6,039 nt of DNA, from sequence record NC_007820.1. One strand, given 5' to 3'. Below the pieces are notes generated by a model. That model made no database searches. It saw nothing but the letters and a program-made list of their open reading frames with translations, and was not told the DNA's origin. The stretch comes from Escherichia phage NC35. Below, one piece after another: positions 1 through 6,039 of this stretch; the stretch's first letter is position 1, and every line of letters starts with the position of its first letter. The position numbers and the translations under genes are program-made.

Positions 1-26
1 TTGTTGACATTCCCTGAACCCTTATG

Positions 27-64
27 AGACTCTTGCTTCAACGAAACGAAGTAGGAGTCTTTTT
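27..64 (+). terminator. Hairpin (about 12 bp stem, 28-39 pairing with 48-59, two G-U pairs, 8-nt loop) followed by TTTTT; possible intrinsic terminator downstream of gene H on the circular genome. Its right arm contains the Shine-Dalgarno of ORF 65..433.
   Basis: Seen in sequence: GACTCTTGCTTC (28-39) is complementary to GAAGTAGGAGTC (48-59), followed by a T-run at 60-64. By analogy, phiX174 has a terminator after H. Stability not computed. Confidence 0.4.
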
Positions 65-433
65 ATGAAACCAGCTCATCGCCTTTATCATCCTGTTCTC
101 GGTTCTTGGCTGTTCAAGTGCCCTGTTTATATCCGTTATGAGCATCTTCATCATGGTCGTCTTATCAAGGTTCGTGCTGTTCGTGACCTTTCTCCGCGTC
201 AGCAGTTGATTGCTAACCCTAAAAATTGCTTTGACGTTGTCATTGCTGAGATTGATGTTACTCACCTTTCTGTTACTTTGTACGATTTTGAAGCTGAGGA
301 GTATGCTGAGTGTGATTCCGGTACTATGGAGCTTCTTCTTTCTCAGGTAAATTCTGGCGAGGTTATTCGCTCCTCCGAAGACCTGTTTGTTGATGTTGAC
401 GATATGGATTGGCTTTATGAAATTGCGGAGTAA
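65..433 (+). CDS. Hypothetical protein, 122 aa, with a basic N-terminal half and a strongly acidic C-terminal half; not part of the canonical phiX174 gene set.
   Basis: ATG at 65 preceded by AGGAG (53-57) with 7-nt spacing; stop TAA 431-433. Third codon positions are T-rich, as in the known phage genes here. Same strand as all other genes. No recognisable similarity to phiX174 proteins by eye. Confidence 0.5.
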   Translation: MKPAHRLYHPVLGSWLFKCPVYIRYEHLHHGRLIKVRAVRDLSPRQQLIANPKNCFDVVIAEIDVTHLSVTLYDFEAEEYAECDSGTMELLLSQVNSGEVIRSSEDLFVDVDDMDWLYEIAE

Positions 434-2950: not shown

Positions 2951-3025
2951 ATGAAGAAAGCTCGTCGTTCTCCTTCTCGTAAGAAAGGTGCCCGTCTCTG
3001 GTATGTAGGCGGTTCTCAATTTTAA
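2951..3025 (+). CDS. J: DNA-binding (packaging) protein J, 24 aa (MKKARRSPSRKKGARLWYVGGSQF).
   Basis: Highly basic peptide whose C-terminus matches phiX174 J (KGARLWYVGG-QF). Starts 1 nt after the D stop (TAATATG). The short length is typical of alpha3-like or G4-like phages, not phiX174 (38 aa). Confidence 0.85.
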   Translation: MKKARRSPSRKKGARLWYVGGSQF

Positions 3026-3030
3026 TTGAT

Positions 3031-3044
3031 GGGGCTTCGGCCCC
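3031..3044 (+). terminator. J-F intergenic hairpin GGGGC(UUCG)GCCCC; likely terminator or mRNA-stabilising stem-loop.
   Basis: Perfect 5-bp G/C stem closing a C(UUCG)G tetraloop, immediately followed by TATAAGGAT (the F Shine-Dalgarno). phiX174 has a J-F intergenic hairpin at the equivalent position. Confidence 0.5.
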
Positions 3045-3059
3045 TATAAGGATTTTTAA

Positions 3060-4343
3060 ATGTCAAATGTACAAACTTCCGCTGAGCGTATCCCTCATGA
3101 CCTGTCTCATCTGGTTTTTGATGCAGGCAAAATTGGTCGTTTAAAAGTTGTTTCTTGGACTCCTGTTGTTGCAGGTGATTCTTTTGAGCTTGATATGATT
3201 GGCGCTATTCGCCTCTCCCCGCTTCGTCGTGGTCTTGCTGTTGACTCTCGCGTTGACTTGTTCACGTTTTATGTTCCTCATCGTCATGTATATGGTGAGC
3301 AGTGGATTGAGTTTATGAAGCAAGGTGTTGATGCTGCTCCTCTGGCTCCTGTTCAGTGCTCTCGTGGTTGGGATAGTGCGCAGTATCTCGCTACTATTCC
3401 GTCTAGTAACTTAAAGGTTCCTAAGTTCCTTCATCAAGGTTACCTGAACATTTATAATAACTATTTTAAAGCTCCGTGGATGGATGACTTGACTTATGCT
3501 AACCCGTCCAATATGAAAGGTGAAGACGTTCGTTTTGGTGTTCGTGCATGTAACTTGAAAACTATTTGGACCGCTCCGCTTCCTCCGGACACTGAAACCT
3601 CTCATTCTATGGAGACTGAGTCTAACTCCATTGACATTATGGGTTTGCAAGCCGCTTATGCTCAATTACATACTGAGCAGGAGCGTGATTACTTCATGAC
3701 TCGTTATCGTGATATTGTTAATGAATTTGGTGGTAGTACTTCTTATGATGCGGATAATCGTCCTTTGCTTGTTATGCATTCTGAGTTCTGGGCCTCAGGC
3801 TATGACGTCGACGGCACCGACCAAAGCTCTCTCGGTCAGTTCTCCGGTCGTGTCCAGCAGACGTTTAAGCATTCAGTACCGCGATTCTTCTGTCCTGAGC
3901 ATGGCACTATGTTCACACTCGTATTGGTCCGCTTCCCGCCGACTCATGAAATGGAGATGCATTACTTAGTTGGTAAAGAAGATTTGACTTATACTGATTT
4001 GGCTTGTGACCCGGCTTTGATGGCTAACTTGCCTCCGCGTGAGGTTAATATGTCTCAGTTCTTCCATTCTGGAAGTGCTAGTGCTAAGTTTAAAATTGCT
4101 GAAGGCCAGTGGTATCGCATGCAGCCTGACCGTGTTGCGCTGCCGTATAACTATCTTGATGGTTTTCCGTTCTATAGTGCGATTCCGTCTGATGATATTA
4201 AGCAGCGTGTTCTGGTTAATACTGATAACTACGATGAGGTTTTCCAGTCTATGCAGCTTGCTCACTGGAATATGCAGACCAAGTTCAACTGCACGATTTA
4301 TCGTAATATGCCGACTACTCGTGATTCTATTATGACCTCTTGA
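3060..4343 (+). CDS. F: Major capsid protein F, 427 aa.
   Basis: Extensive similarity to phiX174 F from MSN-QT-AER-PHDLSH through the C-terminal NLPTTRDSIMTS; same length as phiX174 F. AAGGA (3048-3052) upstream of the ATG. Confidence 0.97.
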   Translation: MSNVQTSAERIPHDLSHLVFDAGKIGRLKVVSWTPVVAGDSFELDMIGAIRLSPLRRGLAVDSRVDLFTFYVPHRHVYGEQWIEFMKQGVDAAPLAPVQCSRGWDSAQYLATIPSSNLKVPKFLHQGYLNIYNNYFKAPWMDDLTYANPSNMKGEDVRFGVRACNLKTIWTAPLPPDTETSHSMETESNSIDIMGLQAAYAQLHTEQERDYFMTRYRDIVNEFGGSTSYDADNRPLLVMHSEFWASGYDVDGTDQSSLGQFSGRVQQTFKHSVPRFFCPEHGTMFTLVLVRFPPTHEMEMHYLVGKEDLTYTDLACDPALMANLPPREVNMSQFFHSGSASAKFKIAEGQWYRMQPDRVALPYNYLDGFPFYSAIPSDDIKQRVLVNTDNYDEVFQSMQLAHWNMQTKFNCTIYRNMPTTRDSIMTS

Positions 4344-4349
4344 TTATGT

Positions 4350-4363
4350 GGGGCTTCGGCCCC
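4350..4363 (+). terminator. F-G intergenic hairpin GGGGC(UUCG)GCCCC, identical to the J-F hairpin.
   Basis: Same 14-nt stem-loop as at 3031-3044, again followed by TTAAGGAT (the G Shine-Dalgarno). Confidence 0.5.
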
Positions 4364-4380
4364 CTTTAAGGATATTGATT

Positions 4381-4926
4381 ATGTTTCAAGTTTATGTTTC
4401 TAAGCATGTTTCTCCGTTCACCTCTATGAATCGTGCTTTTGGTATTACTCCTTCTAGCAATCCGACTGTTGTTAACTCTGGTGAAATTCAGGCTGGTCGT
4501 TCTACTTTTCGTATTGCCTCTTCCATTGGTGCCGCTTCCAATGGTCAAGGTTTTGCGTTTGTTCAAATGATGGACCCTTATTCTCCTGATAATCAGCAGG
4601 TTTTTTCTGTTGCTGCTTCCCTGTCTTTTAGTGTTGATTCGAACTATGTTCCTTGCGTTATTCGTTTTGAGACTGCTAGCACGCAGCCGACTAATATCGA
4701 TGTTTCTACTGCTGACTTTATTCCGCTTGAGTCTTCTGCTCTCTCTGCTCGTGCTCTCAGTGTTCGTGATTGTGTTACCGTTGATGTTAAGCCTCGCATT
4801 GAAGGTAATAACGTTTTCGTTGGTGTGGTTTTCTGTTCTGCTGGAGCTAGTGCTGGTAATGTCACTGGTGCTGTTTCGATGGCTCAGGTTGACCATGAAG
4901 TTACAGCTTTGCAGCCTCTTAAATAA
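4381..4926 (+). CDS. G: Major spike protein G, 181 aa.
   Basis: N-terminus MFQ(V/T)(Y/F)(V/I)S(K/R)H and C-terminus ...TALQPLK match phiX174 G (MFQTFISRH...ICLQPLK), plus the central RFE(T/S) and DCVT(V/I)DV motifs. ATG 4381 with AAGGA (4368-4372) upstream; the ORF-track start at 4348 is a GTG inside the hairpin and is rejected. Confidence 0.95.
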   Translation: MFQVYVSKHVSPFTSMNRAFGITPSSNPTVVNSGEIQAGRSTFRIASSIGAASNGQGFAFVQMMDPYSPDNQQVFSVAASLSFSVDSNYVPCVIRFETASTQPTNIDVSTADFIPLESSALSARALSVRDCVTVDVKPRIEGNNVFVGVVFCSAGASAGNVTGAVSMAQVDHEVTALQPLK

Positions 4927-5061
4927 AAGGCCGCCGCACTCCCGGTTATATGCCTGCCCAGTGTAGGGCGGACCGAGCCGTACGGAGATACCCGATAAAC
5001 TAGGAACGTGGAAGGCGCAAGCCGCCTTCCATCCTGCTAAGCCTAAAGGAGACTTTCAGCT
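4927..5061 (+). other. Structured, GC-rich G-H intergenic region (135 nt) with at least two hairpins and an 8-bp palindrome; candidate complementary (-) strand origin or primase recognition site.
   Basis: Hairpins at about 4954-4971 (CTGCCC / GGGCGG, 6-nt loop) and 5009-5031 (GGAAGGCG / CGCCTTCC, 5-nt loop), a CCGTACGG palindrome at 4978-4985, and CTG at 5034-5036 just 3' of the second hairpin. G4-type phages place a DnaG-dependent origin in an untranslated hairpin-rich region. Confidence 0.4.
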
Positions 5062-6039
5062 ATGTTAGGTGCCGTTGTAGGTGGTATTGCTTCAGCCTTA
5101 GCCGGTGGAGCCGCCTCTAAGTTATTTGGTGGTAAGTCTGCCCCTCAAGCCGCTACAGAGTCCGCTGGCCTATCTAATGGTCAAGGTGTTATTGGTATGG
5201 ACCAAGATGCCGGTATTCAGTCGGCTATTCAGGGTTCAAATGTCCCAAATGGTCAGATTCCCGCCCCCACGCAGACTGGTGGTGTTATGTCTGATGCTAA
5301 AAACATGATTAAGAATGCTGGTAAGGATTTGCTTGATGGTGTCATGACTGCTGGTAGTGACCGAGTCAAACAAGCTTTGGTTGATGGATTGAGTGGTAAT
5401 AATGCAAAGAAACAAGGACAAGCAACCCGTGATTACTTGGCTGCAGCCTTCCCTGAACTCAATGCATGGGAGCGTGCTGGAGCTGGTGCTTCCGGCGCCG
5501 GCTTGGAATCTTCCAGCCAGGACCAACAGAAAGAATTGATGCGAATGCAGTTGGACAACCAGAAAGATATTGCGAAGATGCAGATGCAGAATAATTTGCA
5601 GATTGCAGGTATTCAGTCCGCTACTTCTCGTCAAAATACGAAGGATTCTGTTTATGCACAGAATGAGATGCTTCAGTACAATCAGCGTGAGTCGCAAGCG
5701 CGTGTTGAGTCCATCCTCGCCAACACTGACCTTACGGTTAAACAGGCCACCCATGAAATCATGAGAATGGCCCTTACTCGTGCTCAGGAGACTGGTCAAC
5801 ATTTAACTAACTCTCAGATTATGGCATTGGAGAAAAAGGTTTATGCAGAAATCGGAAAAATTCATCAAGATACTCAAAACTCTCGCTATGGTAGCTCTCA
5901 AGTTACTGCTGCGGCGAAAGATGTTACAAATATGATTTCTGATGCTGTTGGCGGTTTTGCCGACTGGGCTTCCCAGCAATGGAATTCCTTCTTTAAGGAT
6001 GGTAAGTCTAATGGTATTCCTCTTAATACCAGAAAATAA
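5062..6039 (+). CDS. H: DNA pilot (minor spike) protein H, 325 aa.
   Basis: Strong similarity to phiX174 H: N-terminal glycine-rich hydrophobic segment (GGIASALAGGA-SKLFGG), central TRDYLAAAFPELNAWERAGA, and AGIQSATSRQNTKD-VYAQNEML. AAGGAG (5046-5051) upstream; stop TAA at 6037-6039 is the window end. Confidence 0.96.
   Translation: MLGAVVGGIASALAGGAASKLFGGKSAPQAATESAGLSNGQGVIGMDQDAGIQSAIQGSNVPNGQIPAPTQTGGVMSDAKNMIKNAGKDLLDGVMTAGSDRVKQALVDGLSGNNAKKQGQATRDYLAAAFPELNAWERAGAGASGAGLESSSQDQQKELMRMQLDNQKDIAKMQMQNNLQIAGIQSATSRQNTKDSVYAQNEMLQYNQRESQARVESILANTDLTVKQATHEIMRMALTRAQETGQHLTNSQIMALEKKVYAEIGKIHQDTQNSRYGSSQVTAAAKDVTNMISDAVGGFADWASQQWNSFFKDGKSNGIPLNTRK

Follow-up and report, generated by a model that had tools for sequence, protein, structure and literature searches.

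Twin UUCG hairpins on either side of capsid gene F in the alpha3-like phage NC35 are probable counterparts of the phiX174 elements TJ and TF

Introduction

The rho-independent terminators TJ, TF, TG, and TH of phiX174 are located in the J-F, F-G, G-H, and H-A spacers, respectively, and TJ, TF, and TG stop only 20% to 40% of transcription (bioRxiv 10.1101/2020.03.05.979765). The passages of PMC3335065 that cite Hayashi, Hayashi & Muller 1983 state that readthrough at TJ amounts to 68% of transcripts at 37 °C, that the transcripts with the greatest stability are those that end at TJ, and that disruption of the J-F hairpin in phiX174 and G4 leads to faster mRNA decay. An adaptive substitution that lengthens the TJ tail by one T has also been described (PMC3606162).

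Here, we examine a hairpin that occurs in two copies, ahead of genes F and G, in the 6,039-nucleotide sequence of Escherichia phage NC35 (NC_007820.1), which is referred to in its entirety as the window.

Results

Two identical hairpins flank gene F

The window comprises the whole genome of an alpha3-like microvirus, with 94% identity to coliphage NC3. Gene J is located at positions 2951-3025 on the + strand and ends with the stop codon TAA (3023-3025). It is followed on the same strand by the open reading frame of gene F (3060-4343, stop codon TGA at 4341-4343), which encodes the major capsid protein of 427 amino acids, and by gene G (4381-4926), which encodes the major spike protein of 181 amino acids and matched the annotated G of NC3. 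The F protein was 95% to 99% identical in amino acid sequence to the F proteins of ID32, WA13, and NC28. An earlier note on this DNA had assigned genes J, F, and G correctly.

The same note had drawn attention to a duplicated 14-nt element, and the sequence GGGGCTTCGGCCCC was indeed present in exactly 2 copies on the + strand of the window, at 3031-3044 (hairpin 1) and 4350-4363 (hairpin 2). No third copy was found anywhere in the window, even with 2 mismatches allowed. None of 200 dinucleotide-preserving shuffles contained 2 matches, and a chance origin of the exact repeat is excluded. Both copies consist of a 5-bp G/C stem, with the arms GGGGC and GCCCC, and a UUCG loop on the C-G closing pair that defines the UNCG class. 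The predicted RNA folding energies of the 2 hairpins were -10.4 to -10.8 kcal/mol in a 22-nt context and -9.6 to -10.8 kcal/mol over all predictions, and the predicted pairing probability was 0.99 in 130 to 450 nt of native context, whereas the DNA version was predicted to fold with -6 kcal/mol. The Rfam covariance models gave no match to the window at E <= 1, which is unsurprising for a hairpin of only 14 nt.

The hairpins belong to 2 intercistronic modules that we read from the sequence and from alignments. The J-F module of 40 nt (3023-3062, +), which was aligned over 16 alpha3-like genomes, contains in order the J stop codon TAA, an AT-rich linker of 5 nt, the hairpin, the dinucleotide UA, the Shine-Dalgarno region TAAGGAT (3047-3053, +), and the start codon of gene F at 3060. 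The F-G module of 43 nt (4341-4383, +) likewise contains the F stop codon TGA, a 6-nt linker, the hairpin, CUU, the Shine-Dalgarno region TAAGGAT (4367-4373, +), and the start codon of gene G at 4381. The hairpins thus begin 5 nt past the J stop codon and 6 nt past the F stop codon, and the start codons are located 15 and 17 nt 3' of the respective stems. The 2 modules were identical in 33 of 43 aligned columns. The combination of hairpin and Shine-Dalgarno sequence that had been noticed ahead of both capsid genes is present as described.

The letters TTGAT, which the earlier note had listed as a shared prefix, are found at both sites. They abut hairpin 1 (3026-3030) but are located 5 nt upstream of hairpin 2 (4340-4344), where they include the F stop codon, and in the relatives, the J-F site reads TTAAT, TTAAC, or TTAT instead. 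The unequal distances and the absence of conservation rule out TTGAT as a component of the module. Two tiny open reading frames span the hairpins, from the ATG at 3029 to the TAA at 3049 (MGLRPL) and from the ATG at 4346 to the TAA at 4369 (MWGFGPL). They were rejected as functional genes, as WA13, NC3, WA45, and phiX174 have no such upstream ATG, the alpha3-type phages have another frame, and the ATG has no Shine-Dalgarno sequence ahead of it.

The proximity to the ribosome-binding sites raises the alternative that the hairpins act chiefly on translation. A stable hairpin upstream of the Shine-Dalgarno sequence would sequester G/C-rich sequence and shield the AT-rich ribosome-binding sites of F and G from long-range pairing, or serve as a standby platform, and it would set the geometry of re-initiation from the J or F stop codon 33 to 37 nt upstream. 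The spacing is always narrow, with 2 to 6 nt between the hairpin and TAAGGA or TGAGGA and 15 to 19 nt between the hairpin and the AUG in every genome compared, and TAAGGA is kept upstream of F in the alpha3-like and G4-like genomes, with TGAGGA in phiX174. The short distance of 5 to 6 nt from the stop codons implies that a terminating ribosome would have to melt the hairpins. In silico, the stretch spanning the Shine-Dalgarno sequence and the AUG was predicted to be unpaired with a probability 3 to 10 times higher for the native hairpin than for a mutant 5' arm, although this effect rests on a single arbitrary mutant and the absolute accessibilities were low, 0.03 to 0.07 for F and 0.001 for G. 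Moreover, genes D, H, and A of NC35 have Shine-Dalgarno sequences without a comparable hairpin, and the effect of disrupting the J-F hairpin in phiX174 and G4, where it is described in PMC3335065, was faster mRNA decay. We consider a chiefly translational function unlikely; a contribution to translation would be compatible with terminator and stabiliser functions and is not exclusive of them.

The J-F hairpin is conserved across the Bullavirinae

A hairpin was found at the J-F site in every Bullavirinae genome examined, and the order of J stop codon, hairpin, and F AUG is common to phiX174, G4, the ID2-like, and the alpha3-like genomes. Hairpin 1 of NC35 is identical to the phiX174 J-F hairpin at 14 of 14 positions and is located at the equivalent position, so that it shares the sequence of TJ, which is a well-studied weak terminator and mRNA stabiliser of phiX174. 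The same 14-mer was present in ID2-like phages and in 5 further phiX-like genomes (ID1, NC1, NC41, WA4, and GR8), in which it was invariant despite variation in the adjoining bases. The set of relatives was extended by a search of IMG/VR with a looser J pattern, which returned 95 stretches, nearly all of them fortuitous hits in large contigs; after restriction to contigs with an F protein as well, 1 new genome was gained (L047). A metagenome search with the G protein yielded no relatives, and a scan of species genomes with the J 3'-end pattern gave no match.

Among 27 distinct hairpin sequences, the 5 core pairs were kept in all but one cell, and 5 of 7 pairs had changed on both sides of the stem in the covariation analysis. 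The pair adjoining the closing pair was G-C in 16 sequences, C-G in 9, and A-U in 2. The covariation score of 0.318 was not reached in any of 500 shuffles, for which the score was 0.104, and it dropped to 0.166 or less once the partner was slid. Judged by this pattern, the J-F stem is maintained by compensatory substitutions across 3 genera. The closing pair was C-G in all 27 sequences and the loop was UUCG in 23, with UACG, CGCG, CACG, and UUUG in one each. UNCG loops confer added stability on RNA but not on DNA, and the conservation of the loop and its closing pair therefore points to a function in RNA.

Covariation alone does not separate this from a function in DNA, since the packaged genome is the + strand, as is the mRNA. 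The hairpins might accordingly work as structures in the single-stranded virion DNA, in packaging, in the exclusion of SSB, or as nuclease or A-protein sites, and the predicted DNA hairpin is stable. Yet the near-universal UNCG loops on a C-G pair are a signature of RNA stability, and we know of no benefit of this combination in DNA. In addition, the window does not contain the ACTTGA motif found at the A* site of phiX174, and the candidate origin of complementary-strand synthesis is already accounted for by the G-H spacer. Taken as a whole, a role in DNA, whether as such structures or as junctions for the swapping of F and G by recombination (see below), appears extremely improbable.

The F-G hairpin is confined to the alpha3-like phages

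The F-G hairpin was present in all 17 alpha3-like genomes with a readable F-G spacer and absent from the F-G spacers of the phiX-like and G4-like genomes compared. WA13 and ID32 have hairpins identical to those of NC35. Since it is found in all of these genomes and in both of the divergent F lineages, the proteins of which are 66% identical in amino acid sequence, it is old and maintained. The comparison of spacers that the earlier note had proposed among phiX-like, G4-like, and alpha3-like genomes thus recovered the J-F hairpin throughout and the F-G copy in the alpha3-like phages only. The note had reasoned that unrelated spacers in the relatives would make the identity a matter of chance or of very recent events; instead, the pair was found in every readable alpha3-like genome, so the arrangement is old and is due to neither.

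The F-G spacer is 33 to 37 nt long in the alpha3-like phages (37 nt in NC35) and 110 to 136 nt in the phiX-like and G4-like phages, and sequence comparison revealed no homology between the NC35 spacer and that of phiX174 or G4. Alignment and folding instead identified the homologue of the G4 F-G spacer, which we take to be the primase-dependent origin of complementary-strand synthesis, in the G-H spacer of NC35 (4927-5061, +), with a mean column identity of 86% among NC35, G4, and alpha3. The NC35 F-G spacer is short because this homologue is situated between G and H, as it is in the alpha3-like phages that have the F-G copy; this is also where a TG-equivalent structure would be expected.

The F-G unit probably arose long ago by duplication of the J-F unit, which would make hairpin 2 a paralogue of hairpin 1. 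Beyond the hairpin, the flanks of the 2 NC35 modules shared 19 matches versus 16.2 +/- 1.7 in composition-matched shuffles, 190 of 2,000 of which reached 19, and the similarity was not significant in this genome. It was significant in most of the relatives, with for example 0 of 2,000 shuffles in alpha3, L047, and L021, and a duplication is likely for this reason. Convergent constraint on a stop codon, an AT-rich linker, a Shine-Dalgarno sequence, and an AUG is a tenable alternative source of the likeness.

The identity of the 2 copies could also be upheld by concerted evolution, that is, by gene conversion or recombination between the short repeats, rather than by independent selection, as in the homogenisation of the spacers that the earlier note had envisaged. 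The stem type was equal at both sites in 12 of 17 alpha3-like genomes (GGGGC in 9, GGGCC in 3), NC28 had GGGCC at both sites despite its WA13-type F-G flanks, and a naive permutation over all 16 genomes gave p = 0.003. However, the 12 matching genomes reduce to a few lineages, p was 0.17 inside the WA13-type group, and the stems differed in MG945254, alpha3, L047, St-1, and NC29 (5 of 17). Only about 3 stem states are in use, so frequent matches are expected; GGGGC, GGGCC, and GGCCC cover nearly all copies, which makes the identity less remarkable. Across the whole spacers, the mean number of differences was 9.1 within and 9.8 between genomes, and the J-F spacer of NC35 differed at 10 positions from its own F-G spacer but at only 7 to 8 from alpha3-type F-G spacers. 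As spacers within a genome are scarcely more alike than those between genomes, ongoing homogenisation finds no support, and an identical tract of just 14 nt offers very little for homologous recombination to act on. We therefore regard concerted evolution as very improbable.

Exchange at the modules themselves would fit the distribution of divergence, with 55% to 74% identity between 2 alpha3-like lineages in F and G versus 78% to 95% in the A gene and the H-A and G-H spacers. L022 has a third type of G, the divergence of which starts about 10 nt past the G start codon, beside the module. The islands of identity at the modules extend over the conserved ends of the F protein, at the N- as well as the C-terminus, and much of this identity is explained by constraint on the protein. 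A further reading treats the whole 38- to 43-nt stretch that runs from stop codon to start codon, with the UUCG hairpin and the Shine-Dalgarno sequence in between, as a portable cassette. It would have been copied from J-F to F-G in the ancestor of the alpha3-like phages, with its homologue of the G4 F-G spacer between G and H, and the resulting islands on either side of F and ahead of G would now be preferred junctions for homologous recombination through which whole F and G genes are exchanged. We consider this quite improbable; if true, it would account for the exchange of F and G between microviruses that are otherwise 90% to 95% identical, with the mosaics of alpha3-type and WA13-type and the third G type of L022 as examples.

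The hairpins have weak terminator features

Both copies are predicted to form the G/C-rich stem-loop of an intrinsic terminator. The following 8 nt contained 2 U in the J-F tail UAUAAGGA and 3 U in the F-G tail CUUUAAGG, as compared with 4 for phiX174 TJ, and neither site had the U-run of typically at least 4 to 5 within 8 nt. The J-F site, the F-G site, and phiX174 TJ all fell below the threshold of a classical terminator discriminant, of which we used only the ranking and not the threshold. A consensus terminator scan flagged the J-F site solely through an extension of the stem and missed the F-G site. By these features, the NC35 hairpins would at best be weak, non-canonical terminators, and as their U-tracts are weaker than that of TJ, stabilisation may outweigh termination. 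The earlier suggestion of selection for a terminator or an mRNA stabiliser gains from the identity to TJ and the compensatory changes in the stem, while its terminator half is weakened by the poor U-tracts. For 40-nt modules, the substitute tail UUUUUUUU was conceived, with which termination can be gauged apart from stability.

The sole strong terminator-like site of the series was a canonical TH-like intrinsic terminator at 26-65 (+), just downstream of TTGACA (4-9), with a 14-bp stem followed by UUUUU and a predicted fold of -21.1 kcal/mol (z = -5.2; 0 of 200 shuffles).

Discussion

We think that the 2 hairpins are probably leaky intrinsic terminators that double as 3'-end stabilisers of mRNA, each fused to the next ribosome-binding site, and that they lower the dosage from D/J to F to G. 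As the equivalents of TJ and TF in the alpha3 lineage, they would form in the polycistronic + strand mRNA directly past the J and F stop codons, where each would stop a minority of RNA polymerases and bar 3'-to-5' exonucleases from 3' ends produced either by this termination or by processing. The D-J and D-J-F transcripts would thereby outlive longer transcripts, and with the contributions of the structured G-H spacer and of the strong TH-like terminator past H, the mRNA dosage would fall stepwise as D/J > F > G > H. Packing of the hairpin against the Shine-Dalgarno sequence would join stop, hairpin, ribosome-binding site, and start in a single unit of 38 to 43 nt. For termination and stabilisation in NC35, we infer from the experiments of others on phiX174 and G4.

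The twin hairpins around F in the alpha3-like phages are a known kind of element, and the finding is an ordinary one, which places TJ- and TF-equivalent regulatory hairpins in an alpha3-like genome and has little import beyond annotation. The TJ hairpin ranks with the non-coding elements that are best conserved in the Bullavirinae, and its module has a second copy in the alpha3 lineage, at the site that in phiX174 and G4 is origin and terminator in one. Because the U-tracts are so poor, 3'-end stabilisation may be separated from termination more cleanly in the natural hairpins of NC35 than in phiX174 TJ. The second copy and the poor U-tracts are of possible interest for the refactoring of microvirus genomes and for models of microvirus expression.

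Outside the microviruses, C(UUCG)G hairpins have reportedly been described in the intercistronic regions of T4 and in E. coli intrinsic terminators, by Tuerk et al. in 1988 and d'Aubenton-Carafa et al. in 1990. They share with the NC35 hairpins the short G/C stem, the C-G closing pair, the UUCG loop, the location between cistrons or at transcript ends, and an exceptional stability for their size, but the loci are unrelated, and what they have in common is a mechanism and a motif rather than an ancestry.

Closer in position are phiX174 TF and the F-G spacer of G4, which like hairpin 2 are located after F and before G, at a presumed second step-down in transcript dosage. They differ in that their hairpins are other ones, unrelated in sequence, that overlap the complementary-strand origin or PriA site, whereas the F-G spacer of NC35 resembles its J-F module. 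The J-F hairpin of G4 occupies the place equivalent to that of hairpin 1, with a different but compensated stem. The closest counterpart is phiX174 TJ, the orthologue of hairpin 1, which is found at the same junction of J stop and F start, with the 14-nt sequence in common and the same order of hairpin, short U/A-rich tail, Shine-Dalgarno sequence, and AUG, although the tail is shorter and poorer in U in NC35 (UAUAAGGA versus UUACUUGA in phiX174) and the linker between hairpin and Shine-Dalgarno sequence is 2 nt in NC35 and 5 nt in phiX174.

The repeated hairpin module in the genome

The 6,039-nt window represents the entire genome of an alpha3-like microvirus (Bullavirinae, Alphatrevirus), linearised immediately 3' of gene H, and the nearest record is coliphage NC3, 94% identical with 100% of the length covered. 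Based on ORFs and the NC3 annotation, gene A was placed at 730-2214, D at 2491-2949, J at 2951-3025, F at 3060-4343, G at 4381-4926 and H at 5062-6039.

The sequence GGGGCTTCGGCCCC occurred exactly twice, at 3031-3044 in the J-F spacer and at 4350-4363 in the F-G spacer, and no third site was present in the window even with two mismatches allowed. Two matches were reached in none of 200 shuffles. The hairpins start 5 nt (J) and 6 nt (F) past the preceding stop codon, each is followed by TAAGGAT (3047-3053 and 4367-4373), and the stem-to-start-codon distance is 15 nt for F and 17 nt for G. This confirmed the identical hairpin and Shine-Dalgarno module that the earlier note had described before both genes. 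The TTGAT prefix claimed for both copies was indeed present near each of them, but its distance is unequal, it holds the F stop codon in one case and it is not conserved in relatives. Folded as RNA, the 14-mer formed five G-C/C-G pairs and a C(UUCG)G loop (about -10.4 to -10.8 kcal/mol), with a stem pairing probability of 0.99 in 60-200 nt of native flank per side.

The hairpin may also insulate the AT-rich ribosome-binding site, a translational role that could coexist with termination and mRNA stabilisation. The spacing from hairpin to Shine-Dalgarno is constant, and the in silico comparison of native and one-arm mutant sequences, in which the Shine-Dalgarno-to-AUG stretch was unpaired 3-10 times more often in the former, hints weakly at such a role.

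Conservation and covariation of the J-F hairpin

The comparison set consisted of 16 distinct complete alpha3-like genomes and two partial contigs, five G4-like genomes, phiX174 and five phiX-like relatives, and the unclassified Lilleen. Alignment of the spacers across phiX174-like, G4-like and alpha3-like genomes, which the earlier note had put forward as a check, recovered the J-F hairpin in every genome and contig, Lilleen included, and judged by sequence the J-F copy in the window is the TJ hairpin of phiX174. The identical 14-mer was common to phiX174, all phiX-like genomes, the ID2-like G4 relatives and the WA13-like phages, and the bases directly upstream varied among them. Stem changes in the remaining lineages were compensated: GGGCC/GGCCC in phiK, NC28 and the relative L021, GG(G)CCC/GGGCC(C) in alpha3 and the relative L047, GAGCCC/GGGCTC in St-1, GGGGGC-UACG-GCCCCC in the relative L007, GUGGGAC-CGCG-GUCCCAC in G4 and GUGGGAC-CACG-GUCCCAC in Lilleen.

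All five core pairs were intact throughout the 27 distinct 20-mers, save for one cell, a 1-nt deletion in NC29. The closing C-G pair was invariant, and the pair beside it was G-C in 16, C-G in 9 and A-U in 2 sequences. The covariation score was 0.318 versus 0.104 in shuffles (reached by 0 of 500), and at most 0.166 once the partners were slid. Covariation alone would look the same for mRNA and same-sense virion DNA. The loop was UUCG in 23 of the 27 sequences, and since UNCG loops gain their added stability in RNA and not in DNA, this favours a function in mRNA.

It was also noted that the partial alpha3-like metagenome contig NFYY01001704.1 has a UUUG loop, the sole loop variant found on the 5-bp GGGGC stem, and GUAGGAG in place of UAAGGA as the Shine-Dalgarno sequence before F.

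Origin of the F-G copy

The F-G hairpin was confined to the alpha3-like clade, where it was present in all 17 genomes with a readable F-G spacer. This spacer is 33-37 nt long, whereas the F-G spacers of phiX-like and G4-like phages are 110-136 nt and unrelated to it. From stop to start codon, the J-F and F-G units of the same alpha3-like genome shared 30-35 identical positions in 39-43 columns, compared with 20-26 matches in 41-48 columns for the 40-nt stretches preceding D, H, A, J or ORF65. For most genomes, similarity outside the hairpin was above that of composition-matched shuffles (0 of 2,000 in alpha3, L047 and L021); that of the window itself was not (reached by 190 of 2,000). The F-G unit would therefore most simply derive from the J-F unit by an old duplication, the alternative being convergence on one functional layout.

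The earlier note had also raised homogenisation between the spacers. With the 5' arms denoted A (GGGGC), B (GGGCC) and C (GG(G)CCC), the J-F/F-G states were A/A in the window, ID32, WA13, ID21, NC3, WA45, ID62 and the relatives L022 and L019, A minus one G/A in NC29, A/B in MG945254, B/B in NC28, phiK and L021, and C/B in alpha3, L047 and St-1. Genomes with matching stems fall into few lineages, and with only three stem states in use, matches are often expected. Across the whole spacer, the two copies differed at 9.1 positions within genomes versus 9.8 between genomes (permutation p = 0.17 within the WA13-type and 0.035 within the alpha3-type group), and the J-F unit of the window showed 7-8 differences from alpha3-type F-G units versus 10 from its own. 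Ongoing concerted evolution was therefore unsupported, and it is enough to assume that two old paralogues are under the same purifying selection.

Genome mosaicism

Whole-genome alignment of the 16 alpha3-like genomes revealed strong mosaicism. Identity between alpha3-type and WA13-type genomes was 90-95% in gene A, 78-95% in the H-A and G-H spacers, about 82% in D, 76-79% in H, 60-74% in F and about 55% in G. A DNA-level role or a recombination junction at the modules is suggested by this mosaic structure, its only pointer, but much of the conserved island can also be put down to conservation at both ends of the F protein. NC29 and NC3 contained extra sequence in the C-D region. Two relatives, L022 (metagenome contig SKEH01002404.1) and L019, joined a WA13-type F, 95% identical in amino acids to that of the window, to a third type of gene G; in L022, this gene was 52-60% identical in nucleotides to both known alpha3-like types, diverging from about 10 nt past the start codon.

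The G-H spacer and the H-A region

The G-H spacer (4927-5061) is a homologue of the G4 F-G spacer (86% mean column identity, three-way alignment), which we take to be the primase-dependent complementary-strand origin, and the element thus lies one gene farther downstream in the alpha3-like group. After H, a 14-bp hairpin at 26-61 followed by UUUUU forms a canonical terminator (-21.1 kcal/mol, z = -5.2). It is preceded by TTGACA at 4-9, and this promoter-then-terminator order (4-65) resembles pA-TH of phiX174.

The "intergenic" H-A region (1-729) contained conserved ORFs that are unannotated in the GenBank records of NC3, alpha3, phiK, St-1, ID21 and WA45. ORF 65-433 (122 aa), with AGGAG just upstream and its Shine-Dalgarno within the 3' arm of hairpin 26-61, was open in 14 of 16 alpha3-like genomes, and its variable sites per codon position (43/31/80) are a coding signature. 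ORF 437-526, a 29-aa hydrophobic peptide, was open in all 16, and frame 523-699 (58 aa, GTG start at 523, GGAGG upstream) showed a third-position excess. Three frames were searched against Pfam and PHROGs (65-433, 437-526 and an overlapping one at 545-670), and none gave a match.

Possible termination and stabilisation, and comparison with phiX174

The post-stem tails in the window, UAUAAGGA (2 U in 8) and CUUUAAGG (3 U in 8), are poorer in U than the phiX174 TJ tail UUACUUGA (4 U in 8). Both sites ranked below phiX174 TJ and G4 by a classical hairpin-plus-T-tract score, used for ranking only. A consensus terminator scan missed the F-G site and picked up the J-F site only when the stem was extended. 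From the tails, scores and scan, termination at both sites would be expected to be very leaky, and a stabilising role as exonuclease barrier probably outweighs it. Because the hairpins start so close to the stop codons, a ribosome parked on the J or F stop codon would keep the hairpin open, so that hairpin action should vary with how tightly translation trails transcription.

In phiX174, four rho-independent terminators, TJ, TF, TG and TH, occupy the J-F, F-G, G-H and H-A spacers, and transcription falls by only 20-40% at each of TJ, TF and TG (bioRxiv 10.1101/2020.03.05.979765). Read-through at TJ was 68% at 37 C by qPCR (PMC3335065), and the same article, citing Hayashi, Hayashi & Muller 1983, describes transcripts ending at TJ as the most stable and mRNA decay as faster when the TJ structure is disrupted. 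An adaptive substitution lengthened the T-tail of TJ (PMC3606162), and TJ was without mutation in 16 viable machine-designed phiX-like genomes. However, a model fitted to RNA-seq data puts TJ termination strength near zero (PMC11527146), and of the single substitutions in phiX174 terminators, only 14.6% reduced fitness. Orthology with TJ and covariation support a reading of both hairpins as putative terminators and mRNA stabilisers, by analogy with phiX174, in line with the earlier suggestion of either role. Sequences identical to these hairpins are already in published genomes, and the element is of an established type, with an orthologue whose function has been studied.
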